A DNA stretch of 64,000 nucleotides, from contig JBGARZ010000018.1 in the NCBI GenBank assembly GCA_044229975.1, positions 1-64,000 of the forward strand. Direction: 5' to 3'. Both the position numbers and the translations under genes were made by a program. Source of the stretch: Polyangiales bacterium. GTDB lineage: Bacteria; Myxococcota_A; Polyangia; Polyangiales; Ga0077539. Under the pieces are notes generated by a model. The model was not told the DNA's origin and ran no database searches. It saw nothing but the letters and a program-made list of their open reading frames with translations. Shown one piece after another: positions 1-64,000 of the stretch. Position 1 is the stretch's first letter. Each line of letters opens with the position of its first letter.

Positions 1-539
1 ACGGCGACGGGCTCGACGGCGATCGCTGCGACGCCAAAACCAACGAGCGCCCGAGCGTCAGCCGGTCACGCCAAGGCGCTCGCCAGGCCGCGCCAACGGA
101 CGTCCGCCATTTCTTGTTGGTAGGTGTTTGACAAGCGCAGTTACGTGCTCGACGGCGCGGCGGGCATCGCGCGCAAGCGCCCCGACGGGAGCGTCGTGGG
201 CGGTGCCCCGGGAGAAACCACGCCACCCGCGCGACTGCGGATGCCGCGACGCTCGCGGTCGGCGGCCGCGTGACCGCGAAGTGCAGCGACCCAAATGCCT
301 CGGGGTCGGTCGGGACCGCGAAGGCGTCGCGGACCGTGTTGCGCTGGTTGAAGATCATCCAAATGCCAGGCGGCGCGGGTGCCGATGGCGTGGGCGGCGG
401 GAGTCACGCGACGATGCGGCGCGTGCGATCGCGATCTTGAGGAGGTCACGCCGATCGATGGGCGTGGCGACACGGGGAGTCACGCGACGAAGGTAACGCT
501 GTTAGCCATGCGAGGGCGACGGCCTACGCCCGCCGGGCG

Positions 540-900
540 ATCACGGAGTGCCCCGTGCACTCTCCGTAGCAGTCCATGTCGCCATTCGTCGGAAGTCCCG
601 AGGTGCGCGCTGACGCGGATCGAAGGCGGCGCCCGTCGACGTGCGCGATGGCGCGCGGCACCGCGTGCCGCTTGAAGACGTAGGCGAGCGCCGTCCGCGC
701 CGCCTCGGTCGCGTAGGCACGGCGCCACGGGCGGCGGAACACGGTCCACCCCCGTTTGTAGGTGCGCCCCGGCGTCTGGCGGAAGAACGCGCCCCTCTTC
801 CCGACGAGCTCACCGGTCTCGCGCGGCGTGATACCCACCAGCCCGCGTCGATCATCGTCCAGACACCCGTCTCGGCCGCGAGGAGGCGCCACGCGGTGCG
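540..900 (-). pseudogene. GNAT (RimJ/RimL-like) acetyltransferase remnant, frameshifted
   Basis: Reads ETGELVG..GAFFR..GWTVFRRPWRRAYATEAARTALAYVF..AIAHVD, then SIRVSAHLG in another frame; no intact N-terminus. Confidence 0.75.
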
Positions 901-1175
901 GCGGTCGGGCACGACGGCGACCCCGCTGCCTGCGGCGGACTTGGGCAGGCGCTCAAGACGCCTGCCCGCGACGTCGGGAATCACAACGTCAGGAAGGTCT
1001 CCATGGCGGCGGCGCGATGCACAAGACCCGGCCGACCGCTCATCGTCACCACCGCGAAGCTCTTGGCTGCGCCCCTCGCGACGAAGGATGAGATGAACCG
1101 CGCGTCGAAGCTCGTCCCGATGCTTTGATAGCGGGCCCAGTGGACAACCGCGGCGGCGGCGGAGACTCTCGACCA

Positions 1176-3239
1176 ATGCCGTACCGGAGCGCTCCGCTGC
1201 ATCGGCCCGACGCGCACGCGCCGCGGCGGACATGGGGCGCGGTGCTGGTGTTGGTGGCTGGCGCCGTGATCGTGCTCACCGGGCGACGCGCAGAGCACGC
1301 GAGTCGACCGCAGCACGCGCGGGAACGGTCGGTCGCGCAGGCGATCGAGGCGGCCCACGCGCGGACGATGGCGAGCGGCGCGCAGGTGGCGGTGCTGCAC
1401 GGCGAGGGCGAGCGCGCGGTGGTGGTGCGACTCCCCGGTCCGCTGGTGCGCCGGGGGGCCGATGTGGTGCACGTGCCGGAGGTGATCCCGGCGCGCGACG
1501 CGGTGGCGCTCATGCCCGACGGCGCGTGGGCTATCGACGCGCGGGGCAACCTCTTCGACGCGTCGAGCGCCTGGGCGGTGGCGGCCTGTTCGCAGCGGCC
1601 GTGCGTCGCGCAGACGGTGCCGGGACACGGCCGCGTGGTGCAGATCACCGTCGACGAAACGGCGCGCCTGGAGGATGGCTCGCTCGCGCGGAGGCGAGAC
1701 AGCGCGTCTGTGGAGTGGCGGGTCGACCCGTCCGCGCACGACGTAGTCGACGTGGTCGACGTGATCGATCGGGGTCCTCCCATCGAACTGCGACGCGATG
1801 GGAGCATCGGTCCATGGACCTTCAGTGCCGGGTCGCGGCGCGTGCCCGATCCGCAGGAGCTGGTGATCGACGATGGCCTGTTCTGTGTGAGAGGTCGTCG
1901 AGGGGACGTGCAGTGCCGCTCCCCGGGACCGTGCGCCCCACAGGAGATCTGCTCTGGCCCGCCTACGATCGTGGAGGGCCTGCCCGCGCGCGCCGCGCAG
2001 ATTGCTGTGGGTCTCAACGGTCTCTGCATGGTCGACTTTGGCGGCCTGCTCTCCTGCACGCGGGCGTCCCGGTACCATCGGATTCCGACGACACCGCCCG
2101 TGCTCACGCCCGAGGGCGGGCTCGGCGCGGTCACCGAGGTCGCGTTCTCCAGCGACGTGGGCTGCGCGCGCCTGCGGGGCGGCGAGGTGCGTTGCTGGGG
2201 CGCCCCGCTGGAGCACGGCGGCGTGGTGCGCCGCGACACGCCCGTCGCCATCCGGGGCCTCGACGCGGTCGAGCGACTGGAGGTCGTGGGTTCGAGGGTG
2301 TGCGCGCTCCAGCGATCGGAGGTGCTCTGCTTCGGGCAGCGGTCGGACGAGCATCACGACGGTCCGTCGGGGTTCCCTGTCCCGCTCGTGCTGGGACGAC
2401 CCGTCACGGAGATCGGGGCCGCTGGACAGCACCTCTGCGTCGTCCTCGCCGGCGGAGGAGTTCGCTGCACCGACGGCGACCCGATCGCGCGGACGTGGCG
2501 CGAGCCCGAGGGCGAGGCGCCCGTAGGTGCGCACGCCCTGGCGTGTACGGACGACCTCGTCTTCGTGCTGGATGATCGATCGCGGGCGTGGCTTGCGGCG
2601 CCCGACGAGGCGCACCTCAGGTTCCTCCGGGTGCCGATCTTCGACGGGTACGAGCGCATCGCGTGGGACCCCCTCATCTGCGCGGTCCGCCCCGACGGCC
2701 TCCGGTGTCCGGGATACCGCGACACCTCGGGGATCAACTGGCGCGCCGAGGAGAGCGAGTGGCGGCTGGCCTTCGAGCAGGCCCGCTCCGCGCTCACGCG
2801 CACCGCTCCCGTGGTCGGAGCGCGGACGCAATCGCTTCGACTACGCGAAGGGGGTACAGGGTGCCCGCCCGAGGTGTCGGAATGCTCCCTACGGGAGGTG
2901 CTCGACGGCGGCGTGCGCGCGACACCCTATTCCGCCAACCCCAGCGATTGCCTGCTCGGGGTGCGCGGCCGCGTCGCCTGCTATTGGAACGGCCACGTCG
3001 ACGGCGGGGTCGTGGACCATATCGTCCGCGGAGAAGAAGATGGAGCGGTGATGCTCGTGCCTGGCCTCGATGACGCGGTCGAGGTCGTGGTCACGGTCCA
3101 GGGCCTCGCCTGCGCCCGCCGCGCGACGGGCGGTGTCGTCTGTTGGGGCCGCAACAGCGACGGCGTGCTCACCGCCGCCGACCACCCCGACCACTTCGAA
3201 CGCTACCGCCTCGACGACCTTCTCTCTCGCGCCCGCTGA
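1176..3239 (+). CDS. Membrane-anchored RCC1/BLIP-II-like repeat protein
   Basis: N-terminal TM segment; motifs CARLRGGEVRCWG and CARRATGGVVCWGRN; paralogue of 45785..47944; start set at ATG 1176 (MPYRS). Confidence 0.8.
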   Translation: MPYRSAPLHRPDAHAPRRTWGAVLVLVAGAVIVLTGRRAEHASRPQHARERSVAQAIEAAHARTMASGAQVAVLHGEGERAVVVRLPGPLVRRGADVVHVPEVIPARDAVALMPDGAWAIDARGNLFDASSAWAVAACSQRPCVAQTVPGHGRVVQITVDETARLEDGSLARRRDSASVEWRVDPSAHDVVDVVDVIDRGPPIELRRDGSIGPWTFSAGSRRVPDPQELVIDDGLFCVRGRRGDVQCRSPGPCAPQEICSGPPTIVEGLPARAAQIAVGLNGLCMVDFGGLLSCTRASRYHRIPTTPPVLTPEGGLGAVTEVAFSSDVGCARLRGGEVRCWGAPLEHGGVVRRDTPVAIRGLDAVERLEVVGSRVCALQRSEVLCFGQRSDEHHDGPSGFPVPLVLGRPVTEIGAAGQHLCVVLAGGGVRCTDGDPIARTWREPEGEAPVGAHALACTDDLVFVLDDRSRAWLAAPDEAHLRFLRVPIFDGYERIAWDPLICAVRPDGLRCPGYRDTSGINWRAEESEWRLAFEQARSALTRTAPVVGARTQSLRLREGGTGCPPEVSECSLREVLDGGVRATPYSANPSDCLLGVRGRVACYWNGHVDGGVVDHIVRGEEDGAVMLVPGLDDAVEVVVTVQGLACARRATGGVVCWGRNSDGVLTAADHPDHFERYRLDDLLSRAR

Positions 3240-3240
3240 C

Positions 3241-3700: not shown

Positions 3701-3857
3701 CGCGCGACGGCTACCCCGAGGCGCACTCGCGGGACAGCGAGGCGACGTGGGTGGCGGTCCCGCCGGGGCAGTGCTTGGTGCTGCGGGTGGGTCGACGACG
3801 GCTGGTCGGGGCCGGTCTACGCCAACTGCGGGCTGTAAGGGCGGGGAGCCCGCGCCG

Positions 3858-4749: not shown

Positions 4750-4860
4750 TTCAGCGCCGCGCAATCTGCACCACGAGCCAGTCGTCGTCCGACGCCGCGT
4801 CGTCGAGTCCGAGCGGGCCGCTCGTGTTCTCGCCCCAGCACCACGCGACGCTGCCAGCGA
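4750..4860 (-). pseudogene. RCC1-type repeat C-terminal fragment
   Basis: Reads AWCWGENTSGPLGLDD...QIARR*. Confidence 0.5.
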
Positions 4861-5064
4861 GCTCTCCAACGGGCGGGCATGGAGCTTCCGGTGTACGTCG
4901 CTGACAGGTGAACTTCGCGGCCTGGGCGACTTGTAGACCCGAGCGAATCCGTGCCGAATCGCGTGGGCCGTTGGAGCACCTACCAACCTCCGCGGTGGCG
5001 GACTGGCTGCCGTCGCGGCGGACCTAGCGCAGCCCGCGACGGCGGACGCAGCCGTGATGAGCGC

Positions 5065-9384: not shown

Positions 9385-9547
9385 GCGCACCTCGCGGGAA
9401 GGGGGATGCGGTCACACGGAACGCGCGCCCCCGTCAACCCGCGGCGCGGGACCGAGAGGTCGAACCCGCCCCGCTCTGTGGCCGGGTGCATGCCCGACTT
9501 CGAGTAAACGATCCTCGTTTCCTGGATGGGAAACTGGTTGCTCAGAC

Positions 9548-9602
9548 CGCGAAGTTCCCTGCCCCGCGGCAGCGCCCGCGAGCACCCGCGACGCCGCCCT
9601 GG
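9548..9602 (+). repeat. Dispersed junction repeat copy A (3' part only)
   Basis: ...ttccctgccccgcggcagcgcccgcgagcacccgcgacgccgccctgg. Confidence 0.8.
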
Positions 9603-9831
9603 CAGCGCGCGCGTCGGCACCCGCGACGTGGCCGCCCAGTCCGCCGTGAAGCTCGTCGACACCGTCGCCGCGCCGCTGGAGAATGGCTCCGACGAGGGCA
9701 AGTTCCTGCTGCTCCAGGGGCGGCCCATCGCCGAACCCGTCGCGCAGCACGGGCCCTTCGTGATGGACACCCGCGCGTAGATCCAGCAGGCCTTCTCGGA
9801 CTGCCAGCGCACCCGCTTCGGCGGCTGGCCC
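9601..9831 (+). pseudogene. Pirin C-terminal fragment
   Basis: [42 protein letters not shown]; starts at the end of repeat A. Confidence 0.85.
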
Positions 9832-9861
9832 CGTCCGATCAGCGGCCCTGTGCCCGGCGCT

Positions 9862-10152
9862 CTAGCGGATGCGCCAGCGCTCGACGACCACGCTCCCATC
9901 GCGTGTTGCGGTGACGGTCACGACGCCCGCGTCGCGGTCGATCACCATCGCGTACGGGAGGTTGTCGCGCGGGAACGGCGCCCGCCCGGGAGACTCGTCG
10001 GCGTGGTGCGATCCGACGTAGGCCCCGGCCCGCACCGGGACGCGCTGGAGCGGCGGGCAGACGATGCCGTCACAGGAGGTCACGTCGCTGCCGAGGCATC
10101 CCCCCGCGGCGATCGCGAGCGCGCCGATCAATAGGCTACCGGCCCTGGTCAT
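9862..10152 (-). CDS. Small putative lipoprotein
   Basis: LAIAAGGC lipobox; last gene of an overlapping three-gene run. Confidence 0.65.
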   Translation of the reverse strand: MTRAGSLLIGALAIAAGGCLGSDVTSCDGIVCPPLQRVPVRAGAYVGSHHADESPGRAPFPRDNLPYAMVIDRDAGVVTVTATRDGSVVVERWRIR

Positions 10153-10438
10153 ATCGCCCGCTCCCCCGTCCTGTCTCGCTCCCGCGTCCCTGCCAGCGAA
10201 ACGTCAGCGCCTCGCCGTTGGAGTCGGGGTGGAGCGTCACGTCGTACGTCTGCCAGGGCGTGAGATCGGTGGACGCCGCGCCGTCGACGGTGACGGACTC
10301 GAGTTCCAGCGTGAGCAGCTCCTGATCGTAGAGTCGGCACTGACAGGCCGAGGCGCGCTCGCCCCACGAGAGCGCGACGGCCGCGCCCAGCGCCAGCGCG
10401 CACAGCCGTCGCGTCGCGACGAGACCGAGGAGCCTCAT
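10136..10438 (-). CDS. Small secreted protein
   Basis: Signal peptide ending ASA-CQC; ATGA overlap with the upstream gene. Confidence 0.65.
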   Translation of the reverse strand: MRLLGLVATRRLCALALGAAVALSWGERASACQCRLYDQELLTLELESVTVDGAASTDLTPWQTYDVTLHPDSNGEALTFRWQGRGSETGRGSGRYDQGR

Positions 10439-11196
10439 GGCGTCGGTTCGCTCCTTCCCGCGTTGACGATGACGATCCACGCCGCGCCGTCGTCGTCGCC
10501 GCCGACGCGACCCGGCGTCGGGTCGTAGCCGAACACCAGCGCGTCGAGGAGCGTCCCCCGATCGGCGAGCGCGCCCGGCAGCATCGTGCGGCGGATCGCG
10601 TCGGTGACTGGCTCCATCGTCGACGCGTCGAGGGCCGCACCCGTCGCGAGGTTCACGCCGCGCACGCGCGGAATCACCACACCGGTGCCGCACCCGTAGG
10701 CGAGCTCTGCCCCGTCGCGCCACTGCGCTGGCACGAGCGTCCGCTCGGGGTTGCCCCACACCACGGGCGCCGCGAACACCGTCACGCCCAGCCGCGCGCT
10801 CACCGCGACGATGCCGCCGAGGTCGCTGGGCGGCGCATAGAACAAGAACGCGTCCGCGGGTGTCGCTGCCTCCACCCGCCGCGGCATCGCGTCGGGGATC
10901 ATCGCCGCCTCCGCGAGCGCCGCCGCCTGCGCGTCCGTCGCGCCCATCGCGGGCCCGCAGAACGCCTGGAACCCCGTCGGCCGCATCGTCGTGGCCGAGA
11001 CCCTCACGACCACCGAACACGCGGGCCGTCCCTCGCCCGGCGCGAGGAGCTGCGAGGCGAGCTGGTACTGGGTCAGCCCGCAGGCCTGCGAGGCGTCGAA
11101 GCCCGCGCGCGCGTCCGACCCGGCGTCCGTCGAGGCCGCGGTCGAGCCGCAGCCGAGCATCGCGAGCGCAACCAGCATGACTACCCGGATGCCCAT
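10435..11196 (-). CDS. Putative lipoprotein
   Basis: LAMLGC lipobox, DAG linker; TACGGT 8 nt upstream of the ATG. Confidence 0.8.
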   Translation of the reverse strand: MGIRVVMLVALAMLGCGSTAASTDAGSDARAGFDASQACGLTQYQLASQLLAPGEGRPACSVVVRVSATTMRPTGFQAFCGPAMGATDAQAAALAEAAMIPDAMPRRVEAATPADAFLFYAPPSDLGGIVAVSARLGVTVFAAPVVWGNPERTLVPAQWRDGAELAYGCGTGVVIPRVRGVNLATGAALDASTMEPVTDAIRRTMLPGALADRGTLLDALVFGYDPTPGRVGGDDDGAAWIVIVNAGRSEPTP

Positions 11197-11204
11197 CGGG
11201 TCTC

Positions 11205-11210
11205 ACCGTA
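11205..11210 (-). promoter_or_regulatory. -10-like hexamer TACGGT, leaderless spacing
   Basis: 8 nt before ATG 11196. Confidence 0.6.
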
Positions 11211-11308
11211 CCAGCGCACCGAGCGCCCCGCGACGGTGCCCGATTCGCGTCAGCGGGGTCGACGCGCCGCGGTTGACGTCGACACGGCATCCGCGGTCGC
11301 ATGGGACG

Positions 11309-12339: not shown

Positions 12340-12470
12340 CGCGGTGACGGGTCGGGAGACTCCGGGGCAACGTGGAAACGCCACTGCACCCCGGCGATGC
12401 GGTCGGTGCGAGCGGGCGACTCGACGGCGGCGACGCGTCGTGATTCACCCCGGAGGGGAACATGAGCCGG

Positions 12471-12585
12471 CGATCCAACGGAGCACCCTCGGTGGGAAGG
12501 ATCGGCCGGAGTGGACCAAGCGCCCCTTTACGCACAGCTCCCCGACGCGGAGCAGCTCGCGCGAGCTCCCGCGACGCCGCCTTGG
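12471..12585 (+). repeat. Dispersed junction repeat copy B
   Basis: cgatccaacggagcaccctcggtgggaaggatc...gagctcccgcgacgccgccttgg; closest match to copy C. Confidence 0.9.
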
Positions 12586-12740
12586 ATGATCGACGCCGCG
12601 AGCGCGCTGTGCTCGAGGGTTCCGCCCGCCATCGCGTAGACGACCCCGTCGAGCCATTCGTGCTTCGCATCCCCCGCCGCTTCGAGCCGAAGGTACTCCG
12701 CGTACGACACTCGGTGGTGAACCGCCGCCGCGCTGCGCAT
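12585..12740 (-). pseudogene. Uma2-family endonuclease N-terminal fragment
   Basis: SYAEYLRLEAAGDAKHEWLDGVVYAMAGGTLEHSALAASII, cut at the end of repeat B. Confidence 0.9.
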
Positions 12741-12823
12741 GAACCGACGATGCACCCCAACCGCTCGCCTGGCTACGCTCCTCCGTTCGAGCGCGTCCGC
12801 GCGGGCCGCGATCGAGGAGGCCC

Positions 12824-14149: not shown

Positions 14150-14201
14150 CAATCACCGAAGCCGACGCGGCGTCGAGGGCGGCCAGAGTTTTCTGCCGAT
14201 A

Positions 14202-14326
14202 GGCGATCCGTCGGAGCACCCTCGGTGGGAAGGATCTGCCGGAGTTGACCAAACGCCCCTCTACGCCTGGCCCCCATCATCCCCGCCCTGCGGCAGCTCT
14301 CGCGAGCTCCCGCGACGCCGCCTTGG
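14202..14326 (+). repeat. Dispersed junction repeat copy C
   Basis: ggcgatccgtcggagcaccctcggtgggaaggatc...gagctcccgcgacgccgccttgg. Confidence 0.9.
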
Positions 14327-14416
14327 CGAAGATCGGCCCAAGCCCGGACGGGGGCACCCGATCCGATGGCAGCGGTCGCCGCTCGAACTCCCGATCGCCC
14401 CGCCGGCACGCGCAGC

Positions 14417-17167
14417 ATGAAACCCAATGCATTGCTCCCATGGATGGCGGTGGCGTGTTCGTCGCGCGCGGTCCGGCCCGACCCTCCGGCGGCGCCCGCC
14501 ACCCGCGCGCCGGTCGCCCTGGCGCCCGCGGTACGGGCAGCCGCGGGCGTCGCTCCGTCGCGGATCCTGTTGAGGCCGCGGATCACCCACGCGTTGGAGC
14601 TGATGCCGCGCGACGGGGAGGTCCGCCGTCTCATCCTGTCGGGGCGACCGGCCGAACTGCGCGGCCGCGCGGTGCGCCTCGGGCGCGGGCGCTTCCTGCG
14701 CGACGTGGTCTTCGCGGCCCCCACCGAGGGCGGGCGCTGGCGCTTCGTTACGCAGGACGGGGTCTGGGACGCGGACGGCTTCCTGGGGCTTCCCCGGCGG
14801 GCGTCGGCGATGCAGGGCGCCGGGCGGGGCGTCGGGCGCGTCTGCGCGGCGCGGGCGGGCGGCGTCGAGGGCGTGCCCCCGCCCGACGCGGGCGCCGTCA
14901 TCGACGTCGCGTTCTCCGACGACGCGCTCGGCCTCGCGGTGACCGAGCCGGGCCTCGCGTGGGTCACCCGCGACGGCGGCGCACGCTGGTCGCGCCTCGC
15001 GATCGACGGCGCCGCGCTGTCGGTCGCCGCGGACCGCGACCGCCGCTGGCTCCGCACGAGCGCGGGCGCAGTGGCGGTCGACGCGGGTGGCCACGACGCA
15101 ACGACGGACCCGGCGCGCCTTCCGCGGCTCGAAGCGCTCGACGAGAACGATAACCTCGCGCGGACCGCCGCGCGCGACTGCGAGCTCGCGCCCCTCGACC
15201 CCGTCGAGGTCGCCTCGGTCGACGGCTCGCTCGTCGTGGCGCAGCGGGAGGAGCAGTGGGGCCTCTACGACCTCCGCGACGAGTCGTGGACGCCGCTCCC
15301 GACGCTCCCCGAGGGCTGCGGCTCCGACGCCGGGTGGCTCTTCGCGGGGCGCCTCCACGCGCGGTGCGGGCCCGAGCTATACGCGCTCGGCGACGACGGC
15401 CGCTGGTCACTGCGGCTGCGCGTGACCTCGTGCGGACCGGCCGTCTGCGTGGGCTCGGCCGACGGCGAGCGCGTGGCCTGCGAGGGGCGCTGCGCCGGCA
15501 ACGACGTCTGCGGCGCCGACCCGGTGTGGTGCGAGTCGGCGACGGGAGCACCTCCCGCGGAATGGCACGCGCCGTCGTCGGGGCCGTGGCGGCCGGTGGG
15601 TTACGTCGGTGGGCGCCTGTTCGCGGTCGAGCAGAACTTCGACCTCGGCGGCCTGCGCATGACCCTCGGCGACGAAGCCCCGCGGCCGCTCGTCGTCGCG
15701 GCCCCCGCGGACGCGCGGCGCGTCGACCGCTACTCCATCGGCGTGGGGCGCGACGGCCAGGTGCGGATGTTCGCGTGGGGGGACCTTCCGGCCAACGCCG
15801 GCGTCCTCGAAGGGCCGCCGGGCGGGCGCTTCGCGTGGCGCGCCCTCGCGCCGGGAGACACCCTCCCCGAGGGTCGACCGAACGGACGGCTGCAGCTCCA
15901 TGCCGACCACTTCACGGTCACGCTGACGCGGGACGACGGCACGCTGCTGGTCTCGCGCGGGAGCGCCGGCGCGTGGACGACGCTGACCGCCGCGCCGGAC
16001 GACCCGCTCGCGGCCGACGTCCTCGCGCACTCGGTCGGCGCGCCCACCGACCGGGTCTGGTTGAGTCTTTTTACCGGGGCCGCCGATCGATCGGCCGGCG
16101 CCCTGGTGCTCGACACGACCCATCCGCTGCGGAGCTCGGCGACCGACAGCCTGGGCCTCCCAGAGGCGCCGAGCGTGCCGACGCCCGCGATCGCGTGGGA
16201 CTGCGAGAGGCCCTCCACCGAGGAGCGGACGGACCCCTGGGCGGCGCTGCGAACGCTGCCCCCGATCGGCGCCGTGGGCGTGCAGGAGGGTGAGCGCGTC
16301 CGCCTGTACGACCCGGCGGTGGCGACGCCGGGTTCGTTCCTCGGCGTGGGTTTCGCGACGAGGGCGGAACTCGCGACCCGCGCCCTCCCCGCGCACAGCA
16401 CCGACGCGCTCGCCCGTGGTGAGTGGGCCCTCGCGACCCTCGACGCGCGGCGCGCCACCCTGCTCCGGGTCGAGGCGCTCTCCGGCGACCCGCGCTTCGA
16501 GACGTGGGCGATCGGCGCACCCTCTTCTTCCGGGCCGACCGCGGCGGTCCGCGTGCCGGGGCCCTTCAGCCATGCTCACGTCGTCGCCACGGCGCGGGAT
16601 GGCGCGCGCTCGGCGACGCTGGTCGCGACGAGCGCGCCCTGGGGCGTGGCGTGGTGGCTCGCGGAGGTGCGCCGCGACGGGTCGATGTCCGTGGCCCCGG
16701 TCGCGCTCGCGTCGCGCGAATTCGCAGGCCCCTTCCTGCTCGACGGCGTCGCGGGCCTCGCGCGCATCACTCCCGACGGGCGCGCGGTCGGCGGCCCCGT
16801 GGGCGCGTCGCCCCGGGTGCTCGCGGAGCGGGTGCGCGCCGCCCGCTGCTCCGCGTCGGCGCGGGGCGAGCTGCGCGTCCCGATCACCCACTCGTACGCC
16901 GTCCACGGGGCGCAGCTCTGGATCAGCGCCGTCGCCCACTACGCCTTCGACGGCGCGTCGCTCTGCCTCCGCTCGATCGGCGCGTTGTCGTCGAGCAGCT
17001 TCCTGCCCGCGCCGCCGGGCGCCCGCGCGCAGACCGACGACGACGACTTCGGGTCGTCGCGCTCGCCGCCGAGCTTCGCGCTCGCGCCGGAGGGCGCGGG
17101 GTGGGTCGAGCGGAGCGTCTACCGCGGCGGGTTCGCTCGCACGCGGTGCGTGCCGCGGGCGCGGTAG
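14417..17167 (+). CDS. Large (about 916 aa) lipoprotein, family L, with Asp-box-like motif
   Basis: MAVAC lipobox; DVAFSDD..G..VTEPG..WVTRDGGARW; C-terminal YAFDGASLCLR shared with paralogues. Confidence 0.85.
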   Translation: MKPNALLPWMAVACSSRAVRPDPPAAPATRAPVALAPAVRAAAGVAPSRILLRPRITHALELMPRDGEVRRLILSGRPAELRGRAVRLGRGRFLRDVVFAAPTEGGRWRFVTQDGVWDADGFLGLPRRASAMQGAGRGVGRVCAARAGGVEGVPPPDAGAVIDVAFSDDALGLAVTEPGLAWVTRDGGARWSRLAIDGAALSVAADRDRRWLRTSAGAVAVDAGGHDATTDPARLPRLEALDENDNLARTAARDCELAPLDPVEVASVDGSLVVAQREEQWGLYDLRDESWTPLPTLPEGCGSDAGWLFAGRLHARCGPELYALGDDGRWSLRLRVTSCGPAVCVGSADGERVACEGRCAGNDVCGADPVWCESATGAPPAEWHAPSSGPWRPVGYVGGRLFAVEQNFDLGGLRMTLGDEAPRPLVVAAPADARRVDRYSIGVGRDGQVRMFAWGDLPANAGVLEGPPGGRFAWRALAPGDTLPEGRPNGRLQLHADHFTVTLTRDDGTLLVSRGSAGAWTTLTAAPDDPLAADVLAHSVGAPTDRVWLSLFTGAADRSAGALVLDTTHPLRSSATDSLGLPEAPSVPTPAIAWDCERPSTEERTDPWAALRTLPPIGAVGVQEGERVRLYDPAVATPGSFLGVGFATRAELATRALPAHSTDALARGEWALATLDARRATLLRVEALSGDPRFETWAIGAPSSSGPTAAVRVPGPFSHAHVVATARDGARSATLVATSAPWGVAWWLAEVRRDGSMSVAPVALASREFAGPFLLDGVAGLARITPDGRAVGGPVGASPRVLAERVRAARCSASARGELRVPITHSYAVHGAQLWISAVAHYAFDGASLCLRSIGALSSSSFLPAPPGARAQTDDDDFGSSRSPPSFALAPEGAGWVERSVYRGGFARTRCVPRAR

Positions 17168-35864: not shown

Positions 35865-35936
35865 CCGTGGGCTGCCCCGCCCTCGTGCCCGAGGTCCTCC
35901 CCCTCGTTCGTCGCCGTCGCGGGATCTGACGCAACG

Positions 35937-47944: not shown

Positions 47945-47976
47945 GCTTCCTGTTTTGCGACGACGACGGGGTCGCC

Positions 47977-48738: not shown

Positions 48739-48740
48739 GG

Positions 48741-48746
48741 TACCTT
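48741..48746 (+). promoter_or_regulatory. -10-like hexamer TACCTT
   Basis: 6 nt before GTG 48753. Confidence 0.6.
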
Positions 48747-48752
48747 CCCCCG

Positions 48753-49223
48753 GTGCGCCCCGCACCCGTGCTGCTGCTCGCCGCCCTCGCCCTCGCGGCG
48801 CCCGCGTCGGCCCAGCGCGAGCCGCCCGACCCGCTGTTCGTCCCCGCGGAGATGCCGACCGGGCGCGGGTGGTTCTGCTTCACGCATCGCCGCGCCAGCC
48901 GCTGCTTCCGTCGCGCGGGCCTCTGCGGGGACACCCGGAGCAGCGCGATCGCGCCGCACGCGCAGGTCGCGTATAGCTGCGGCCCGCCGCGGACCACCGC
49001 GCACTGCCTGCGCGTCGAGTGGCGGTGGGGCCCCTACGTGCGGTGCGCGCCGACGGCCGCGCTCTGCCGGGCGGAACGACGTCGGCTGACAACGCCGCCG
49101 CCGCCACACCAGCCAAACACGCCCGATCTCCCGCCCCCGACTGGCGTCTCGCGCTGCCACGCCGTGGGGGACGTCCCGTCGCGAGCCTCGACCGCTCAGG
49201 GTGACGCGCAGCCCGAGGGGTGA
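48753..49223 (+). CDS. Small secreted Cys-rich protein; paralogue of 58872..59360
   Basis: MRPA..AQRE.PDPLF, TAHCL, CAPTA..CRA.RRRLT, CHAVGDV. Confidence 0.8.
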   Translation: MRPAPVLLLAALALAAPASAQREPPDPLFVPAEMPTGRGWFCFTHRRASRCFRRAGLCGDTRSSAIAPHAQVAYSCGPPRTTAHCLRVEWRWGPYVRCAPTAALCRAERRRLTTPPPPHQPNTPDLPPPTGVSRCHAVGDVPSRASTAQGDAQPEG

Positions 49224-49641
49224 TGCAGCCCTTCGACTACGCCTTCCTCGACGCCGTGCTCCCCCACGTCCCGCGGTCGTGGAGGTCGCCGCGAACAACG
49301 GCAGCTTCACCGCGATGGCCCTGCCCGGCGCGATGCCCGCCAACGCCGCGCGGTACCTGCTCCAGGTCGAGCCCGTGGCCGTCGCCTACCAGCTCCTCAG
49401 CGTACCGTTCGTATGGCGGCAGACCACGGGGGGAAGCGCGACGGCTTCCCCTTCGTTGTCCACACCTTGCAGAGAATCTGCTCACCGTCTCGCATCAGCC
49501 CGTGAGCTGAAACGAACAGACTATCAGCGACAATCTCAACTTTCTTTCAACGAGCGCATGCACGCGATCTCCTCCACGGCGATCGCGCTCTTTGGTTACT
49601 TTGCTTGTCCGGCCACGATCGGTTCGGGGCAGTGGCCCCGG

Positions 49642-51665: not shown

Positions 51666-52250
51666 TCAGATGCTGACGCCTGTCTCCAGGTTCTTCGGAT
51701 TGAAGGTGTCGCAGGGCCACGGGCGCTCGGGGTCGCGCACCTTGTGAGCGTTGGCGTCGTCGATCTCGGCCGACAGGTCGCTCAGCGCCCGGTGGAAGCC
51801 GCGGAAGGCCTCGCGGCCCCGGCGGTGGGCATCGAAGACCCCTTCCGCTTCACCGACGCCCATGAGCCGGAGCATCCCGAGGCTGGTGAGCACCATCCCG
51901 AGCAGCCACTGCATCGACGACTTCACGTAGGCCGTCTCGGTGCCGGGGCGGATCTTCGTCGCCATGAAGGTCGGGTCGAGCACGTACTCGTGCATCGTAC
52001 CCACCGCCTCGTGCAGCCCCGTCACGCTCCAGACGAACTGCGCGATCACATCTACGATCGTCTCCGGCCACCGGCCCGTGAACTTCATCGTCGGCAGCGC
52101 CGTGTTGAGGTGGTTCCAGAAGCCGACGCTGTGCACGTCGTCCATGAGGGCATCGAGGGTGGCGTACCGGCCGATATAATCCACCACGAACGCGCGGACG
52201 ACGTCGTACGGCTTGAGCGCGTCGTGGCGCCGCACGCGAAGGTTGGTCAC
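51666..52250 (-). pseudogene. Lipoxygenase C-terminal fragment
   Basis: IAQFVWSVTGLHEAVG (iron-ligand His segment), LSDLSAEIDDAN, terminal NPKNLETGVSI ending in Ile; the N-terminal majority is absent. Confidence 0.75.
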
Positions 52251-52887: not shown

Positions 52888-53115
52888 ATGAGCACCCGCC
52901 TCCGATGCTTCGCTGCACTCTCTTTGATCATGCACGCCGGCTGCTCCAGCGCGGGTGACGCCTCTGCCCCCACGTCGCAGCGTGTGACCTAAGTCGCGAT
53001 GGGCACCGCGCACGTCTGCGCGCTGCTCGATGACGGAAGCGTGCGCTGTTGCGGCCGCAACGACGCAGGGCAGTTCGGCGACGGCACCACGGTCGAGCGC
53101 ACGAGCGCGGGGGAT
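52888..53115 (+). pseudogene. RCC1-repeat lipoprotein N-terminal fragment
   Basis: [55 protein letters not shown], cut where repeat F begins. Confidence 0.8.
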
Positions 53116-53116
53116 C

Positions 53117-53231
53117 GGTAGACCAACCCGGTAGGCTCAGGAGCACCGCTCCGCTTGGGTCGACCGAACGCAGTTTCTCGCAGTTCCCCGTACCAGGACA
53201 GCTCCTGGTAGCACCCGCAACGCCGCCCTGG
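53117..53231 (+). repeat. Dispersed junction repeat copy F
   Basis: ggtagaccaacc...gagcaccgctcc...cgcagttcccc...agcacccgcaacgccgccctgg. Confidence 0.8.
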
Positions 53232-53243
53232 CGAAGGCAACGA

Positions 53244-55880
53244 CTACGGGGCTGTGCAGCGGAGCGGGGCGCCGTCATCCGAGACGCCTGTAAGGCCCGC
53301 TGCGGTCGGGGCGACGACCGCGGAGTCCGCGCGCAGCACCCTGAGGCAGAGCGCGTCGCCATCGAGCGCATACTCCGCTCGGGCCGAGTCGCCGTGCTCG
53401 CGTCCGTCGAACGTCACGCCGGTCGTGAAGGTGAACGCACCGTGCGCCGATGGTCCGCACGCGACGTTCGAGGTGGACCGCGCCAGTACCCGCGGCGCCT
53501 CCCCCGGCGGGCCGCCGATCACTGACCCGTCCGACCGGGCGCGGGCGACGCCCGACCGACCGTCGAGGACGTAGATCCCCAGCGTGCCGAGCTCACGGCC
53601 GCACGTCGCCCAGTGCAACTGCGGCGCGGCGCCGGGCACGACCGCGAGGAAGCCCATCGAGCGGGGGGTCGGGTCGGTGCTGTAGTCCGAGGGGACCACC
53701 AGGGCCGCCAGGTGCTCGCCGTCGCGCACCGTCAGGACGGACGGTAAGCGGTCGGACAGCGCCCACTCCGGGAAACCCTGCCTTCGCGGCGGCAGGTCCG
53801 CCGAGAACGTCACCAGCCCGACGGACGGGCCCTGCGGCCGCCCCCCCGTGATCTCCAGCACGCTCGCGCGGCGGGCGTCGGCGGACAGTACGGTCCACGA
53901 ACGATCCCCGATGGCGGGCATCTCCAAGCGGGCGCCCGCGCGGTACCACCACGAGCGCCCCTCGGGTCGGGTGGGTGTCGCGTCGCCGTTCAGCCAGAAC
54001 TCCACGCGCGCCCCATCCGGCCGGACCCAGTCGCGGCCCACGCGCCCAATGCTGATCGCCGCCTCGGGCCTCGGCCGACTTCGACCCGCCGTCCGCGAAC
54101 CGTCGTGCGTGCAGTGCCACGCGGGGCGCTCGGTCCACGCGGGGCGCTCGGGTTGACCGTCCCCGACCGAGCCGAAGCGCGTCGGTTGGATGGGCCCCCA
54201 GCCGATGACCTCCCCGGGGCCGAGGGTCGTACGGAGCGGCAACGGTCCGCACCCCACAACCGAGCCGGGCGACGACGCGGGAGCCCGCAGCTCGCTCACC
54301 CCCTCGGCGGAGTCCAACGGCCGCCAATCCTGGCCCGGCGCGGAGGCCCAGGTCACGTCGTCCTCGGCCTTCGCGAGCAGCAGACCGCTTCCTCCGCACG
54401 AGCGCACGGGTAGCGTCGGCGCGTCCGGGCGGCTCATCCACGGCAGCAGCGGCCGCTCGGCGAAGGTCTCCCCGGCCCGGCCTTCGAGCAGCCGCCGACC
54501 GTCGGCCCGGCCGGAACGCACCCACAGCCGCAAGCGGCCGTCGCGGTCGACCTCCGGCGCGCCTTCGAGGCGCAATCCGACCGCGGGCGGCGACGGAACG
54601 AGCCTCCGCGGGGCCGCATCCCCGGCGATGAACTCGACGTGCGAGAGCCACTCGCGGCCGTCCACCAGCACCCGCGTCTCGCCGTCGTAGCCCGCCAGTC
54701 GCCAGCGGCGCACCAGTGATCCGACGCTCGTCTCTCGCGGCGTCCCCTCCCCCGCACGCTCGCAGAACGCGCTGCCCGCCCCGCAAGTGGCGCCCTGGGT
54801 GCAGCGCCCCGAGCAGCTCACCCGCGCGCCGTTCGCGCTCGCCGCGCAGCGCACCTCGTCGCCGCAGCCCCACGTCCGCATCCGCTCGCGCCAGGACGTT
54901 CCGTCGAAGGACCACAGCGCCGTCGCGCCGTCCTCGCCGCCGCACTCGACGTACGGCCGGTCGGCCGTGAAGACGCGCCGCGGGTCGCAGGGCAGGTCGG
55001 CCGCGCTGCCCGCCACCACCTCATCGCGCACGACGTCGTAGACCGCGGCGCGCGGCGGCGTGGCGCCCTCGTAGCGCACGAGCAGGCGCGTCTGCGAGGC
55101 GTCGACGAAGGCCATCGGCGCCCACTCCTGGCCCTGGCGGACGCGCTCGTAGAGGGCGTGAAAGTCCGCGCCCATCGCCCGCGTGCGCAGCGTCGGCAGC
55201 GACTCGCACGCGCACGGTTGCAGCGCGCCCGACTCGTCGAGCGAGCGGCACTCCGCGGCGCCGCGGACCCACCGCGCGGGCCCCACCGCCAGCACCGCCT
55301 CGGGGCGGTCGACGGCCAGCGAGCGCCAGTGCTGTCCGCCGTCGTCCGTGGCGAGCGCGAGGCCGGGTTCGAGGAGGGCGATGCCGTGGGCGTCGTCGCC
55401 GAAGGCCACCTCGAGCACGACCCCATCGGGCAGTCCGATGTCCGTCGCGGTGCCGTCGCGGAGGAGCACCGGGCGGCCCGTTCCGAGGCCCAGGGTCGAC
55501 CCGACGGGTGCGCGGACGAGCTCGCGCAGCGGGCCGAGGTACGTCGCGGACTCCCAGCGCGCCGTGCGCCCCGCGAAGATCCAGCGGCCGTCGTGCTCCC
55601 ACGCCCCCTGCACCGGCGCCGCGAACCATCCGTCCGCCGCGCGGAGGTCGTCGCCCCGCAGCTCGACGCGCACCCCGCGAACGATCGCGCGGCGCGGGTC
55701 GCCGTGCTCGTCCACCCACCCGTCGGGCACGGCGTGGTAGCTGCGGTGGTAGACGCGCGCGATCGACGGCGGCGCCGCGTCGACGGTGGGCACGCTCCGA
55801 GCGGGCGACGCCGGACGGGTCGCGGGTCGCGCGCACGACGCGGCGGAGAGCAGGGCCGCGATCGGGAGGAGCACCTTCAT
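53244..55880 (-). CDS. Large lipoprotein, family L
   Basis: MKVLLPIAALLSAASC; EVAFGDD..G..LEPG..ATDDGGQHW; AEYALDGDALCLR; ATGA overlap with the upstream gene. Confidence 0.85.
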   Translation of the reverse strand: MKVLLPIAALLSAASCARPATRPASPARSVPTVDAAPPSIARVYHRSYHAVPDGWVDEHGDPRRAIVRGVRVELRGDDLRAADGWFAAPVQGAWEHDGRWIFAGRTARWESATYLGPLRELVRAPVGSTLGLGTGRPVLLRDGTATDIGLPDGVVLEVAFGDDAHGIALLEPGLALATDDGGQHWRSLAVDRPEAVLAVGPARWVRGAAECRSLDESGALQPCACESLPTLRTRAMGADFHALYERVRQGQEWAPMAFVDASQTRLLVRYEGATPPRAAVYDVVRDEVVAGSAADLPCDPRRVFTADRPYVECGGEDGATALWSFDGTSWRERMRTWGCGDEVRCAASANGARVSCSGRCTQGATCGAGSAFCERAGEGTPRETSVGSLVRRWRLAGYDGETRVLVDGREWLSHVEFIAGDAAPRRLVPSPPAVGLRLEGAPEVDRDGRLRLWVRSGRADGRRLLEGRAGETFAERPLLPWMSRPDAPTLPVRSCGGSGLLLAKAEDDVTWASAPGQDWRPLDSAEGVSELRAPASSPGSVVGCGPLPLRTTLGPGEVIGWGPIQPTRFGSVGDGQPERPAWTERPAWHCTHDGSRTAGRSRPRPEAAISIGRVGRDWVRPDGARVEFWLNGDATPTRPEGRSWWYRAGARLEMPAIGDRSWTVLSADARRASVLEITGGRPQGPSVGLVTFSADLPPRRQGFPEWALSDRLPSVLTVRDGEHLAALVVPSDYSTDPTPRSMGFLAVVPGAAPQLHWATCGRELGTLGIYVLDGRSGVARARSDGSVIGGPPGEAPRVLARSTSNVACGPSAHGAFTFTTGVTFDGREHGDSARAEYALDGDALCLRVLRADSAVVAPTAAGLTGVSDDGAPLRCTAP

Positions 55881-58765
55881 GGCAGGCGACACTCCAGCGC
55901 GTGGGCCGTGCGCCCCACCGTCGCGACGCCGCGCAGGGTTCCGTCCCCGGCGGCGGACACCACCGACGACGCGGCCGCGGAGCGCTGCTCGACGCCGCGC
56001 AGGCAGGTGCCGCTCGCGGAGGTCTCGACCACGAGGTCGACGCAGTCGTCCTCGGTGCGCGCGCCGAGCACGGGCGCATCGACGCGCACGACGACGCTCC
56101 AGGCGTCGGGTGCTGCGGGGGCGCGGCAGGGGACCAGCGGGGCGTCGCCGCGCCAGCGCACGCGGACGGGCTCGGCGTCGGGCGACGGCGCGACCGGGTA
56201 CACCGCGACCTCGGTGGGCGTTCCGTCCAACAGCCTCGCCGCGCCGCGCTGCGGGCCGCTCTCCGCGATCGCCCACCGCGCCGTCTCCGATCGGTCGTCG
56301 TGGTAGTTCCTCCGGTGATCAGGCTCCACGCTCCGGTGTCGGCGGCCGGCCCCGCCGGGCGAGACGTCGAACACGTCGGCCCGACCCATCCCTCCGGAGA
56401 GGAGCGTGAAGCCGTCGCCGTGCGCGCGCCGCGCCGCGCCGCCGAGGTCGCGCACCGGGAGCGTCGCGAGGTGCTCGACGTCGCCGGCCGCGGTGACCCG
56501 CAACAGCTCGCCGTCGGTGTGGTCCTCGCGGAAGGCGATCACGCTCGCAGCGCCGCGGTCGACGCCCAGCACCTCGATGCGCAGGGTCGCGAGGTCGACC
56601 TCGTTCCATTCGAGGGACGGGCCGTGCACGCTCGCCGCGCGACTCGCGGCGGCGTAAGGACCCTGCGCGTCGCGGCCGACCCAGGCGAAGCGCGCGGTCA
56701 GCCGACCGGAAGCGTCGCGCCAGGTCAGCGCGCGCAACGACCCCTCCAGGGTGTCGCCAGAGAAGAGGCGGGAGGCGCGACCCGCGGGCGCCGCCAACGC
56801 ACCGATGGGCGGCAGCGGTGGCAGCAGCGCGGACGGCGCGCATTGGAGGCGCGGCAGGGTTCCTTCGGCGAACCACGCGGCGCGCGGAGTCTCCGGGGCG
56901 GGCGCCGTCGGAGCGACGGCGAAGGCCAGCGCGGAAGGGTCGTCGATGGGTCCCCAGCCCGTGACGACGAGCCGGTCGTCGAGGACGCAGCGGGAGAGGG
57001 AGCAGCGCTCGGGGGCGGGGCGCCAGCGGTCGTCAAGGATGTCCGAGCGGTCCTGCTCGGTGGGATACACGCCGTCAACGGGGGACGGCAGCGCCTCCCA
57101 CGTCCGGCCGCCGTCGCGCGTCCGGCGGAGGACGGAGAACGAGCGCGACCACGCGTAGCCGTGCGACGGGTCGGCGAAGATCGCGCGCTCGACCCCGGCG
57201 GGCAGCGACACCCGCACCAGCGGATCGCCCGGCCGCCCCACGGCCACGTCGCTCAGCGCGCGGCCGGACCACTGCAACGCCATCACGACCCCGGGCCTCA
57301 TGCCCACGGTCACCTGCACTCCGTCAGGCACCGTCCACACGGGCGCCACCGGCAATGGCTCGTCGCCGCGCGCTGCGAGGTCAACCACCCCCAGTGACCC
57401 GCCGTCGCGCTGCACGATCGCCCGCCGGCCGAAGACGCCAACGAGATGCTCGTAGGGTTCGGCAAGGCGGCGCGTGCGGCCCTGCGGCGTGTTGCCGTCG
57501 ATCACGCAGAGCGCGGGCGGCGGTTGCGTCGGGACCTCTGCTTCGTCGTCCGACATCGGCTCACGGGGCTCGCAAGCGAAGGGCGCGACGGCGAAGTCGG
57601 CAATCTCCGAGGGGATCGCCCTCCGCACCGCGAACGGCGGGTCGCTCACCACGCGGCCGGTGCGGAGGTTGACGAACGAGTCCGCCGTCGACGTCGACCC
57701 GTGCGAGCCCGAGTGCGTGCATTCGAGATGGATCAGGTGGCCCGCGTTTCAGAGCGCGCAGCCGCTCATGTCGGTGGCGACGCGGCCGAGCACGCGCCCC
57801 GAGTCGGCGTCGAGCGAGACGAGCCCGCCCGAGGTACCGAAGACGATCGTTCCGTCGGGGCGCACGAGCCCGCCCAGCAGGTCGAGCCAGGCCGGGTCGC
57901 GCGCGGCGAGCAGCAGCCGGAGACCGCGATCGCCGCGGTCGTTGTTGTGTTCTTCTTCCCGCGCGACGGCCTCACGGTAGAGGCGGTCGTAGCGTTCGAC
58001 CTCGCCCGCGGGAAGGTCGGGCCGGCGCGACTCTTCGGACGCGCGCGCGAACACCTCGCAGCCCGGCAGGAGGGTGTACCAGGGCCCGGCGAGCACCTGG
58101 ATGAGCGGCCCCAACGTGAGCATGTGCGAGGCGCCGACGCCCCCGGTGGGCATGACCCGCCAATGCTCGCCGCCGTCGGCCGTGCAGCGGACCACGCCGC
58201 CGTCGGTGATGGCAGCGCCGTGGCGTTCGTCGACGAAGTACACCTGCTCGACGCGGTCGGGCCCGAGCCCGGTGATGCGGCCGAAGGGGCCGCCGTCGCT
58301 CATCCACGCGACGCGTTCGCGATCGACCAGCGCGACGCGACCCCGCTGCGGGCTCTGCGCGCCGTCGGAGCGGTAGTGCTGATAGAAATCTGGGAAGTCA
58401 CCGACGCGCCTCAGCGGCCCGAGGAAGTCCGCGGACGCGAGGCAGGCGCCGTCCGTCGCGACGTAGACCCAGCCATGCGCCACCCGAGCGCCGAAGGAGA
58501 TCGGGGCGGCGAGCTGCTCGCGGGCGGACTGGAACTCGTCGTCGCGGACCCGCACGCGCATCGTCCCGGCGACGAGGTCGGTGGTGCCGTCCTCCTCGCG
58601 ATGTAGCGACTGCGACGCCCCGACCGGGACCCACAACAAGCGGGTGGGCGCGAGCGCGACCGCGGCGACTGTCGGCGTGGTCGGACGCGTGCCGTGGCGG
58701 CATCCCGCGAGCGCACCCGCAACCGCCAGCGCCGTCCATGGAGGGAGTGACGAGACCCGCGGCAT
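55877..58765 (-). pseudogene. Large lipoprotein, family L, interrupted by one in-frame TGA at 57749-57751
   Basis: ORFs 57749..58810 and 55877..57652 are in frame and joined by 32 sense codons (GCAL*NAGHLIHLEC...); LAGC lipobox; TADGGEHW and TRDGGRTW. Confidence 0.8.
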
Positions 58766-58859
58766 GACTCCACCAGATACGACCGACGGGCGCCGCGAGT
58801 CGAGACGCAACGTCCCCGTTCAGGAGCTCACCGCGCGAACGGGTGTCGCATCTTCGTTG

Positions 58860-61259: not shown

Positions 61260-61954
61260 GTGATGCCCTCGTCGTCTGCGCCGGCTGCTACCGCCACGTC
61301 CGCTCGTCGGAGCGCGCGTGCCCCATCTGCTCCGCCGCCAGCGGCGCAACGCCGCCCGCCTCGCGCCCGGGCGCCCTGCACACCGCAGTCATCGCCGCAG
61401 CCCTCGCGCTCGCGGTGAGCGATCGCGCCTACGCCCAGCAGAACCCGCCGACCAACCCGCGCCTCGACATGCTCCACGGCGGCGCCGAGGGCTACGGCGC
61501 TCCGCCCGCGCCGGGCCTCCCCGGCATCCACCCGCCCGGCGCGATCGCCCCGGAGCCCCGCACCGCCGCACCGCTGTTCGAGCTCGCCCGACAGCGTGTG
61601 CGGCCGAACAGTCGCCGTGCCCAGGCCCGCGAGCCGTGGCTCGTTGCTCTGCGCATCAAGGCCGACGGAGCGTGGAGTGCGCCGGGCCACTCGGGACGCC
61701 TGTTGCCGGCACAGCTCGCTGAACTCCGTACGGCGGCGGGGCGGACACCCCTTTCTCCCGACCCCACGAGCGTCCCGATCGACCCGCAGCCCCCGAGAGT
61801 TACGGAGCGCCTCACGCTCGGGGCGAGATCGGTGGGGTGGTCCGAAGCGAACATCGGTATGCCCGGCCGCGACATGCGTCACATCATCGAGCTCGCCTAT
61901 CGCCTGACCCGGGCCCGTCCTACAGCCACACCGTCAACGTCCCGAGCACAGTGA
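61256..61954 (+). CDS. Protein with N-terminal CxxCxRH...CPxC, a hydrophobic segment and a YGAPP motif
   Basis: MSDALVVCAGCYRHVRSSERACPIC...AVIAAALALAV...EGYGAPP followed by a further domain of about 130 aa. Confidence 0.75.
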   Translation: MSDALVVCAGCYRHVRSSERACPICSAASGATPPASRPGALHTAVIAAALALAVSDRAYAQQNPPTNPRLDMLHGGAEGYGAPPAPGLPGIHPPGAIAPEPRTAAPLFELARQRVRPNSRRAQAREPWLVALRIKADGAWSAPGHSGRLLPAQLAELRTAAGRTPLSPDPTSVPIDPQPPRVTERLTLGARSVGWSEANIGMPGRDMRHIIELAYRLTRARPTATPSTSRAQ

Positions 61955-62094
61955 ACGGCCGGCCCCCCGCGGTGAAGTGCTGCACCGGCACCCGGCTGGT
62001 GTCCGCGCCCGGCGTGATCGAGACGTAGAAGCGCTTCGGGACAGAGGAGTCGGCGGCCTTGGTGAACGGCACGCCTGGTGCTGGGCGCCGCTTC

Positions 62095-63240: not shown

Positions 63241-63523
63241 CAGACGAGCAGTGGCGCGGCGCGAGCGCTCGTCTCGACCGCGTGAACGTGGGCAGCCCCG
63301 ACACGCGCTTCGACGCATGCCTCCGGTCCGTCGCACCCGTCCGTCGCGTCGCCGTCGCGCTCCTTGGTTGCCGCGTCGCCTGCCGACCGACCGCGTCTGA
63401 AAACGTCCGGTAGGTCACAGATGGAGGAGCAGCGTTCTCGATTCAAGAATCGGGAGGTCGATCCGGGCGTACGCGGGCAATCGATTGGTAAAGCCGGGCG
63501 CCGATCGACCGTCCCGCGCGTGT

Positions 63524-63529
63524 TACCGT
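63524..63529 (+). promoter_or_regulatory. -10-like hexamer TACCGT
   Basis: 8 nt before ATG 63538. Confidence 0.6.
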
Positions 63530-63537
63530 CTCGTCCG

Positions 63538-64000
63538 ATGCGGGCGATGCGGGGGCTTCTTGTTGCGCTCGTTGCCGTCGTCGGCTGTCACCTTGCGCGC
63601 CGTCCGATGGTCGCCCCGGCAATGCCGCACGCCGCCGGGGACGTTCCGACGCGCGTGCTATGGCTCCCGCGGGGCGGTGGCCTGGACTTCTACGCGCGCG
63701 AGCCCGACGGCTTCGCGGACGTGCTCTTCGGCTCGCTGCGCGTGCAGGTGCGCGACGACGAGGTGCGTGTCGCGACCGACCAATTCGTGCTGCCAGTCAG
63801 CTACGCGGCGCCCGTCGCGCGCGGCTGGGTCTTCGTCGGCGAGGACGGCGTCTGCGCCGCGTCCAGGAGCTTCCTCGGGCCGCTCACGCGCGTGGGCGAC
63901 TTCCCCGACTTCCACCGCGAGTTCGGCTACCACGGCAGCGACAACCGCCAGCGCGGGCGCGTGGCGCTCGTCGATCGCGACCACGCCGCGTGGATGAGCG
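63538..64000 (+). CDS. Family L lipoprotein, partial (runs off the window; absent from the ORF track)
   Basis: Manual translation MRAMRGLLVALVAVVGC..PTRVLWLP..FLGPLTRVGDFPDF..QRGRVALVDR..AWMS; close to the N-terminus of 55877..58765. Confidence 0.85.
   Translation, partial: MRAMRGLLVALVAVVGCHLARRPMVAPAMPHAAGDVPTRVLWLPRGGGLDFYAREPDGFADVLFGSLRVQVRDDEVRVATDQFVLPVSYAAPVARGWVFVGEDGVCAASRSFLGPLTRVGDFPDFHREFGYHGSDNRQRGRVALVDRDHAAWMS

Follow-up and report, generated by a model that had tools for sequence, protein, structure and literature searches.

A mosaic of genes and gene scraps in a Polyangiales genome carries oriIS units of an IS91/ISCR-type element, which may have built it

The 64,000-nucleotide stretch of a Polyangiales genome analyzed here (G000:C24:1-64000, hereafter the window, where G000 is the genome itself, C denotes a contig, and G001, G002, G004, G005 and G007 are congener genomes) is a mosaic in which intact genes are interleaved with broken pieces of unrelated ones. 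It contains nine copies of a repeat unit of about 125 nt, which its position, its motif and the domains of the cognate transposase mark as the oriIS end of a rolling-circle element of the IS91/ISCR type. The units have fixed ends, cluster on one strand, and are joined to passenger DNA that stops in the middle of genes. On sequence evidence, we give a probability of roughly 0.6 to the reading that an HUH transposase of the IS91/ISCR type, acting in trans, built the mosaic by moving and stacking units that each combine a miniature oriIS end (mini-ori) with a passenger.

The unit was recognized from a 56-nt repeat family with six copies on one strand, which extends to the full length of about 125 nt. 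A final nhmmer profile gave 37 matches in G000, including the nine in the window and five on C1, and none in 480 kb of control sequence. The unit lies about 110 nt 3' of the stop codon of an intact IS91-type transposase gene outside the window (503 aa, G000:C14:204879-206390). This cognate element has the features of the transposase family, an HUH Y2_Tnp and a zinc-binding domain (PF04986, E 4e-30, and PF14319, E 1e-19, at 204879-206387), with HLH and RY motifs visible. The unit also sits behind an IS91-type transposase remnant on C15, and the 3' flanks of close transposase matches in the genus contain its inner box in 16 of 16 cases and the full unit in 12 of 16, with one locus counted twice and one flank cut by a contig end. 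The outer end matches both the terminal CCTAT motif found 3' of four IS91-type genes that are more distant and the ISCR1 oriIS 22-mer given in excerpts of PMC13023784. Taken together, the position in transposase flanks, the shared terminal motif and the likeness to the ISCR1 oriIS identify the unit as an oriIS end. Upstream of the close transposase genes, where a terIS would be expected, a conserved short-repeat block is present in 13 of 13 5' flanks. Inspection by eye of 75 congener and 37 own matches, at their ends and in their flanks, found no terminal inverted repeats or target duplication. Relatives of the transposase come mostly from Myxococcales, Myxococcaceae or Deltaproteobacteria bins, and a congener unit copy used as query had matches in seven of eight congeners and in none of 22 genomes outside the genus. 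Two other identities were rejected: a coding sequence, as reading frames are not conserved, and a miniature inverted-repeat transposable element, as contiguous flanks were found in G000 for 0 of the 23 units with both flanks matched.

The initial annotation had likened the window to an integron array in function, named no mechanism and overlooked the nine oriIS copies. With an oriIS as the delimiting repeat, the evidence points to an IS91/ISCR transposase and not to an integron-like recombinase. It is most improbable that the window is instead an integron-type cassette array (a cluster of attC sites lacking integron integrases, CALIN) served by an intact IntI elsewhere, with the repeat as an unusual attC. 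Like such arrays, the window has repeats on the same strand between accessory genes, 1-5 kb apart, and an intact IntI exists at G000:C4:248132-249067. However, this is the only IntI of G000, none lies next to the array, and the repeat is an IS91 end; unlike cassettes, the passengers are multi-gene, hold genes on both strands and are cut mid-gene. An attC scan recovered two 91-nt sites beside the IntI but one marginal candidate in the window, against 0 and 1 in two controls, in keeping with the initial report of no attC sites and no intact integrase. The integrase scrap it had listed could not be recovered: ten of the genome's own integrase, recombinase and transposase queries gave best E values of only 0.33 and 0.46 in the window, and Pfam scans of 68 and 121 window frames (the latter chosen by coding score from 421 gap frames) detected none. 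The C4 locus itself (G000:C4:244343-249067) comprises the intact integron integrase, a low-G+C cassette region and the two attC sites, and is unrelated to the window array.

Unit ends were compared in a pool of the genome's own matches and 75 matches from 32 congener loci, the latter picked for holding units or array genes. Lengths cluster at 119-125 and 131-140 nt, and the first base is G in 65 of 71 units. Seven of 80 right ends continue as the full element, and the other 73 leave it at one same base. The last element bases are mostly CTTG, GCTG or CCTG (CTTG in 33 of 80), a count bounded by the search pattern used, which does not affect the bases 3' of the tetranucleotide. Beyond the 73 fixed ends the sequence goes on with G in 66 and with GC in 54, against a GC background of 13.8%. 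Two unit subfamilies keep this inner boundary fixed throughout the genus. Some units carry insertions of their own. In several genomes, a second small element interrupts the unit at model position ~61 (window 38466-38577; L062:7255-7786; L111:10191-10460), and one of its ends is a hairpin ending in TTCAA, which we take to be IS200/IS605-like. A short inverted-repeat insert occurs near the outer end of others (window ~12420-12468; L062:7151-7202; G000:C1:42822-42873).

Congener units are often grouped in head-to-tail clusters, and of 64 neighboring pairs, 47 have both units on one strand. The 39 passengers measured between them span 0-6156 nt, two units joined without any passenger being among the arrangements seen. 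Clear passengers (G007:C681 and G005:C50) begin and end within genes that are neighbors in G000, with other genes between. In three congener cases the passengers look foreign by sequence comparison: the ends of the G007 passenger are 87-90% identical to G007's own orthologues; the G002 passenger matches the genes of G002 itself at 81-90% identity and G000 at 88-93%; and the G005 passenger is 90% identical to G000 and 74-75% to three others, the host orthologues being missing from a 64% complete assembly. Within G000, 17 of 180 scraps have a unit no more than 1 kb away, where 1.5 would be expected (11-fold), and units of the window touch mid-gene scraps at 4855, 9601, 12584, 17276 and 53110. 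At G000:C10:164970-166870, a lone unit and ~1.8 kb stand in place of a ~58-nt intergenic gap of G004:C34, with the unit at one end only. In G002:C9 (L104 and L105), one ~140-nt gene end occurs three times, with a cluster and a full element between the copies, a hint of homology-based integration.

The scraps themselves set the window apart. It holds 14 truncated-paralogue scraps, where the median is 0, and ranks first among 152 windows of at least 40 kb, although two of the 14 (1331-1727 and 63320-63400) resemble diverged paralogues and are doubtful as scraps. The GNAT, RfbF-like, pirin, Uma2, serpin, lipoxygenase and RCC1 pieces named by the initial annotation are all present by Pfam profiles and own paralogues, with two pieces matched for RCC1; a NusB piece and a TonB-receptor end add to its list. 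The RfbF-like scrap corresponds to aa 103-252 of an own NTP-transferase that is 252 aa long, and the lipoxygenase scrap to aa 365-550 of 550 in an own paralogue. Across eight window scraps compared with own genes, differences fall at 163 of 679 third, 97 of 678 first and 77 of 679 second codon positions (24%, 14% and 11%), a third-position bias that would fit scraps derived from working homologues; an old paralogue would look alike. The proposal that kilobase segments were inserted serially, with pieces of former neighbors attached, gains from the congener passengers that end in genes neighboring in G000 and from the window scraps that abut units. Two of the outcomes named as refuting it, a similar fragment density genome-wide and fully conserved synteny, were not observed: scrap density is above the genome background, and gene order is kept in none of eight congeners (1-40 kb and 44-64 kb; 40-46 kb compared in five), where homologues of single window pieces lie on scattered contigs. 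The window indeed lacks core operons, with core-type genes first appearing near C24:114 kb. Exported or membrane proteins are enriched: a crude hydropathy rule assigns 18 of the 26 window genes of 200 aa or more to this class, compared with 2657 of 5774 in the whole genome, and a lipobox is present in 9 of 26 against 721 of 5774. They fall short of nearly all intact genes, the share that had been proposed. Gene orientation is mixed, but ordinarily so, with a strand-switch rate of 0.40 against a median of 0.375.

The assembly totals 10.0 Mb in 39 contigs at ~72% G+C and is 93% complete and 3% contaminated. Its completeness and contamination, together with a contig that begins in a multi-copy repeat, raise the question of whether the window arose by chimeric assembly of a metagenome bin. 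Reads were checked in four runs (word shares 0.05-0.11), using assembled contigs. None of the four spans the window, and bridging is confined to four scrap junctions, crossed at depth ~2 by two short-read contigs of run X4 (one difference over 81-285, two over 45373-45584). We nevertheless regard a chimera as very unlikely, given these four bridged junctions, scraps that are 75-95% and not ~100% identical to own loci, and the recurrence of the unit junction pattern in seven other assemblies.

The mechanism that we favor would run as follows. Copying from oriIS would halt early at an internal CTTG, GCTG or CCTG site, leaving a mini-element of ~125 nt, which would then be joined to DNA cut before GC. 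Copying would continue for 0.5-6 kb up to another such site, and the resulting circle would insert at a new site or beside a resident unit, at its outer end, the latter suggested by the two units joined without a passenger. Passenger DNA would come from related species and units would be stacked head to tail. Short-homology deletions and point mutation would then erode the array, so that most units would likely be lost and scraps left behind.

Several observations weigh against this reading. The window has dozens of junctions but nine units, three of them partial; past 35 kb there are only two units, and a single weak match was obtained in C24:64-100 kb. The subfamily of the six best-conserved window copies is absent elsewhere in the genome's own assembly, so these copies were probably imported or their parent was lost. 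Neighboring units are on opposite strands in 17 of 64 pairs. A conserved tetranucleotide 5' of the outer end was not found in 71 units (position -1: G 38, A 19, T 10, C 4; positions -4 to -2 mixed), unlike in IS91-type elements, for which excerpts of PMC13181058 describe a conserved target tetranucleotide of CTTG/GTTC type 5' of the oriIS cut. One congener cluster lies inside a 10.7-kb insert with a 12-nt direct repeat at its bounds, indicating that clusters are carried by other elements too. The donor-state intermediate, a unit with contiguous flanks, was not found: of 50 units examined, 23 had both flanks matched, and in none of these were they contiguous. Scored regardless of units, GC at mid-gene breakpoints occurred in 6 of 30 right and 3 of 30 left breakpoints against a null of 15%, a test of low power in that nine window breakpoints passed the filters. 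A GC signature at all junctions, predicted and suspected by eye, failed this strict test; the lack of GC excess at unit-less breakpoints leaves a Helitron-style train of GC junctions unsupported. Finally, Bardaji et al. (PMC3189936, excerpts) ascribe most genomic IS801 fragments to rearrangement debris.

Many junctions of the window have the look of subsequent deletions, not of insertion ends, and several unit-less ones overlap by 7-10 nt, which points to deletions. The same overlaps (3702-3711, 48117-48124, G001:C172 and G005:C441) would also suit a generic integration hotspot that takes up congener DNA by homologous or short-homology recombination, with the units as passengers or debris and at most as homology anchors. 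Repeated array gene families and blocks of 89-96% identity shared with G001 and G005 offer homology for such exchange, the unit and GC signature are missing at most junctions, and C29:0-64 kb has eight scraps and no unit. We consider a hotspot unlikely all the same: debris would not stop at one base in 73 of 80 right ends, nor go on with GC in 54 of 73, scraps are enriched 11-fold beside units, and passengers with units at both sides begin and end mid-gene. A dedicated capture site, at which the transposase links free single-stranded DNA of foreign origin, cut before GC, directly to the internal site without insertion into a donor chromosome, is a more doubtful alternative still. It is consistent with the lack of contiguous flanks in all 23 units, with passengers that look foreign and have both ends inside core-type genes, where a donor-state insertion would be harmful, and with the genus-wide inner boundary in two subfamilies. 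However, stacking of mini-ori and passenger units would predict purged, and hence unseen, harmful intermediates as well, and early termination with fixed minis is already known for IS801.

In outline the proposed chemistry belongs to a known class. Excerpts of PMC3189936 report right-end minis of 229, 360 and 679 nt in vivo for IS801, a member of the IS91 family, and 290-1431 nt of adjoining gene carried along. Fixed-length short oriIS-end pieces from early termination, a transposase acting in trans and adjacent DNA cut mid-gene would be common to both systems; in IS801 as described there, minis moved alone and the full element captured the 290-1431 nt, whereas here ~125-nt minis are joined to passengers of 0.5-6 kb and stacked, with constant bases (GC) 3' of the cut and no 5' tetranucleotide. 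ISCR elements, which have oriIS and terIS and may mobilize adjacent genes (PMC13393415, excerpts), share with the present system the HUH transposase, a downstream oriIS with a CCTAT terminus, adjacent-gene mobilization and tandem repeats (ISCR1, ISCR2 and ISCR8; PMC13393415 and PMC13023784, excerpts). As these sources depict them, ISCR elements have their transposase gene between oriIS and the captured DNA, whereas the gene is missing from most units here. The cargo also differs, being congener chromosomal DNA enriched in exported proteins, as does the site, a chromosomal array spanning 64 kb or more. Helitrons are eukaryotic and encode RepHel with a helicase. These rolling-circle relatives take up and rearrange fragments of genes (PMC4778049, excerpts), but the motif predicted from them at unit-less junctions showed no excess when tested here. 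A literature search, mainly of openly readable main texts, did not find oriIS-plus-passenger arrays of this layout.

The features of the window are listed in Table 1. By a codon model, the three lowest scores among 184 windows of 50 kb belong to C24:0-100 kb and C1:0-50 kb. G000:C1:1-60000 and C24:64000-97000 show the same mosaic architecture and gene families as the window, and C1, with its five unit matches, may adjoin C24 across the terminal repeat. Near the core-gene border, the ORF at G000:C24:112262-113638 resembles a serine recombinase by its N-terminal motif. Within the window there were no Rfam matches and no tRNA or tmRNA genes. An own-genome homologue of the segment at 9862-11283 ends next to a unit at C19:378005-378135. 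The identities of 48274-49231 (95%) and 48661-49289 (96%) exceed the ~77-91% of most long collinear stretches. Elsewhere, 2.8 kb of G005:C441 (L047:7357-10532) is 95-97% identical to G000:C17:4231-11248 with internal deletions, which by sequence identity is a further recent cross-species exchange. Paralogues of the array protein family occur near 23.6, 53.2, 55.9-58.8 and 63.4 kb, in C24 64-95 kb, and on C1. At 55877-58810, a copy paralogous to the 929-aa gene of 63.4-66.4 kb is broken into two ORFs near 57.7 kb, and the long ORF at 22966-26325 has a very low coding score, with paralogue matches ending near 25.4 kb. The product of 53244-55889 has BNR/beta-propeller-like look-alikes with scores of 0.83-0.86, a lead only, and atlas comparisons for the array protein family scored below 0.9 throughout. 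Two DsbA-family multi-thioredoxin genes (29745-31490 and 32488-34581) are divergent, with DNA ~75-80% alike.

Table 1. Units, scraps and other features of the window
Feature	Position	Strand	Evidence
Multi-copy repeat end, probably IS; contig breaks there	1-143	.	99-100% to four other places, several of them contig ends
GNAT scrap	524-907	-	PF13302 56-129/138; 81% to G001:C140
NTP-transferase (RfbF-like) scrap, C-terminal 150 aa	3230-3711	-	93% to G000:C2:50786-51267; PF00483 in donor-type gene
C-terminal scrap of a second gene	3702-3842	+	79% to G000:C2:55903-56045; overlaps RfbF-like scrap by 10 nt
Complete unit (GCTG subfamily), then RCC1-type scrap	4855-4987	-	nhmmer model 3-128, E 2e-21; RCC1 likeness via repeat family D17
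Unit, inner half, joins pirin scrap	9532-9601	+	profile match
Pirin scrap, begins at unit	9602-9857	+	PF05726 29-87/103; 82% to G000:C20
Two-gene segment	9862-11283	-	84% to G000:C19:378136-379558
Unit, joins Uma2 scrap at 12585	12469-12584	+	profile match
Uma2 N-terminal scrap, cut at unit	12585-12776	-	PF05685 2-41/172; 83% to G001:C192
Complete unit, outer end intact	14195-14325	+	profile match
Array-family long ORF (~850-930 aa)	14366-17167	+	tblastn; without Pfam match
C-terminal scrap, stops at unit	17188-17275	+	89% to G000:C15:1518-1607
Unit between two scraps, outer end decayed	17276-17394	+	profile match
Weak unit, outer two thirds	21173-21257	+	E 0.015 genome-wide, 5e-4 on region
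2.9-kb segment: small gene and DsbA-family gene	31590-34538	+	86% to G000:C32:625714-628634; PF13462/PF01323
Unit shortly 3' of DsbA-family segment	34600-34709	+	profile match
Serpin C-terminal scrap	35458-35870	+	PF00079 260-370/370; 75% to G000:C11
Unit, inner half, beside small-insert remnant (38466-38577)	38392-38467	-	profile match
Array-family gene scrap	45413-45511	-	90% to C24:65019-65117; X4 contig bridges both junctions
Two fused array-family scraps	47942-48273	+	83% to C24:76407-76589, 94% to C24:64461-64617; 8-nt overlap 48117-48124
Segment common to two other species, other contexts	48274-49289	+	48274-49231 95% to G005:C441; 48661-49289 96% to G001:C172
Lipoxygenase C-terminal scrap	51666-52228	-	78% to G000:C39:208007-208573; PF00305 in donor-type gene
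RCC1 scrap, ends at unit	52993-53109	+	PF13540 E 4e-10
Complete unit, immediately 3' of RCC1 scrap	53110-53230	+	profile match
Array-family long ORF, lipobox-like, ends 13 nt from unit	53244-55889	-	tblastn
Abutting scraps: TonB-receptor end (-), NusB (+)	61916-62074	.	83% to G000:C10, 83% to G000:C20

IS91/ISCR elements are credited with the capture of resistance genes, and the start of capture is poorly shown. A single genus here supplies a candidate transposase that is intact, a minimal substrate of ~125 nt and ~110 naturally occurring unit junctions whose ends are exact to the base; together these make the question of how capture starts directly testable. More tentatively, an IS91/ISCR clade with a second cut site built in ~125 nt inside oriIS might act as a gene-capture machine that joins GC-cut foreign DNA, taking any gene of related species into arrays of more than 100 kb, an integron analogue without the cassette format. 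If unit stacking of the kind favored above is real, large myxobacteria-like genomes would have a route for gathering surface-protein genes from their relatives without cassettes or phage, and gene capture would not need an integron.

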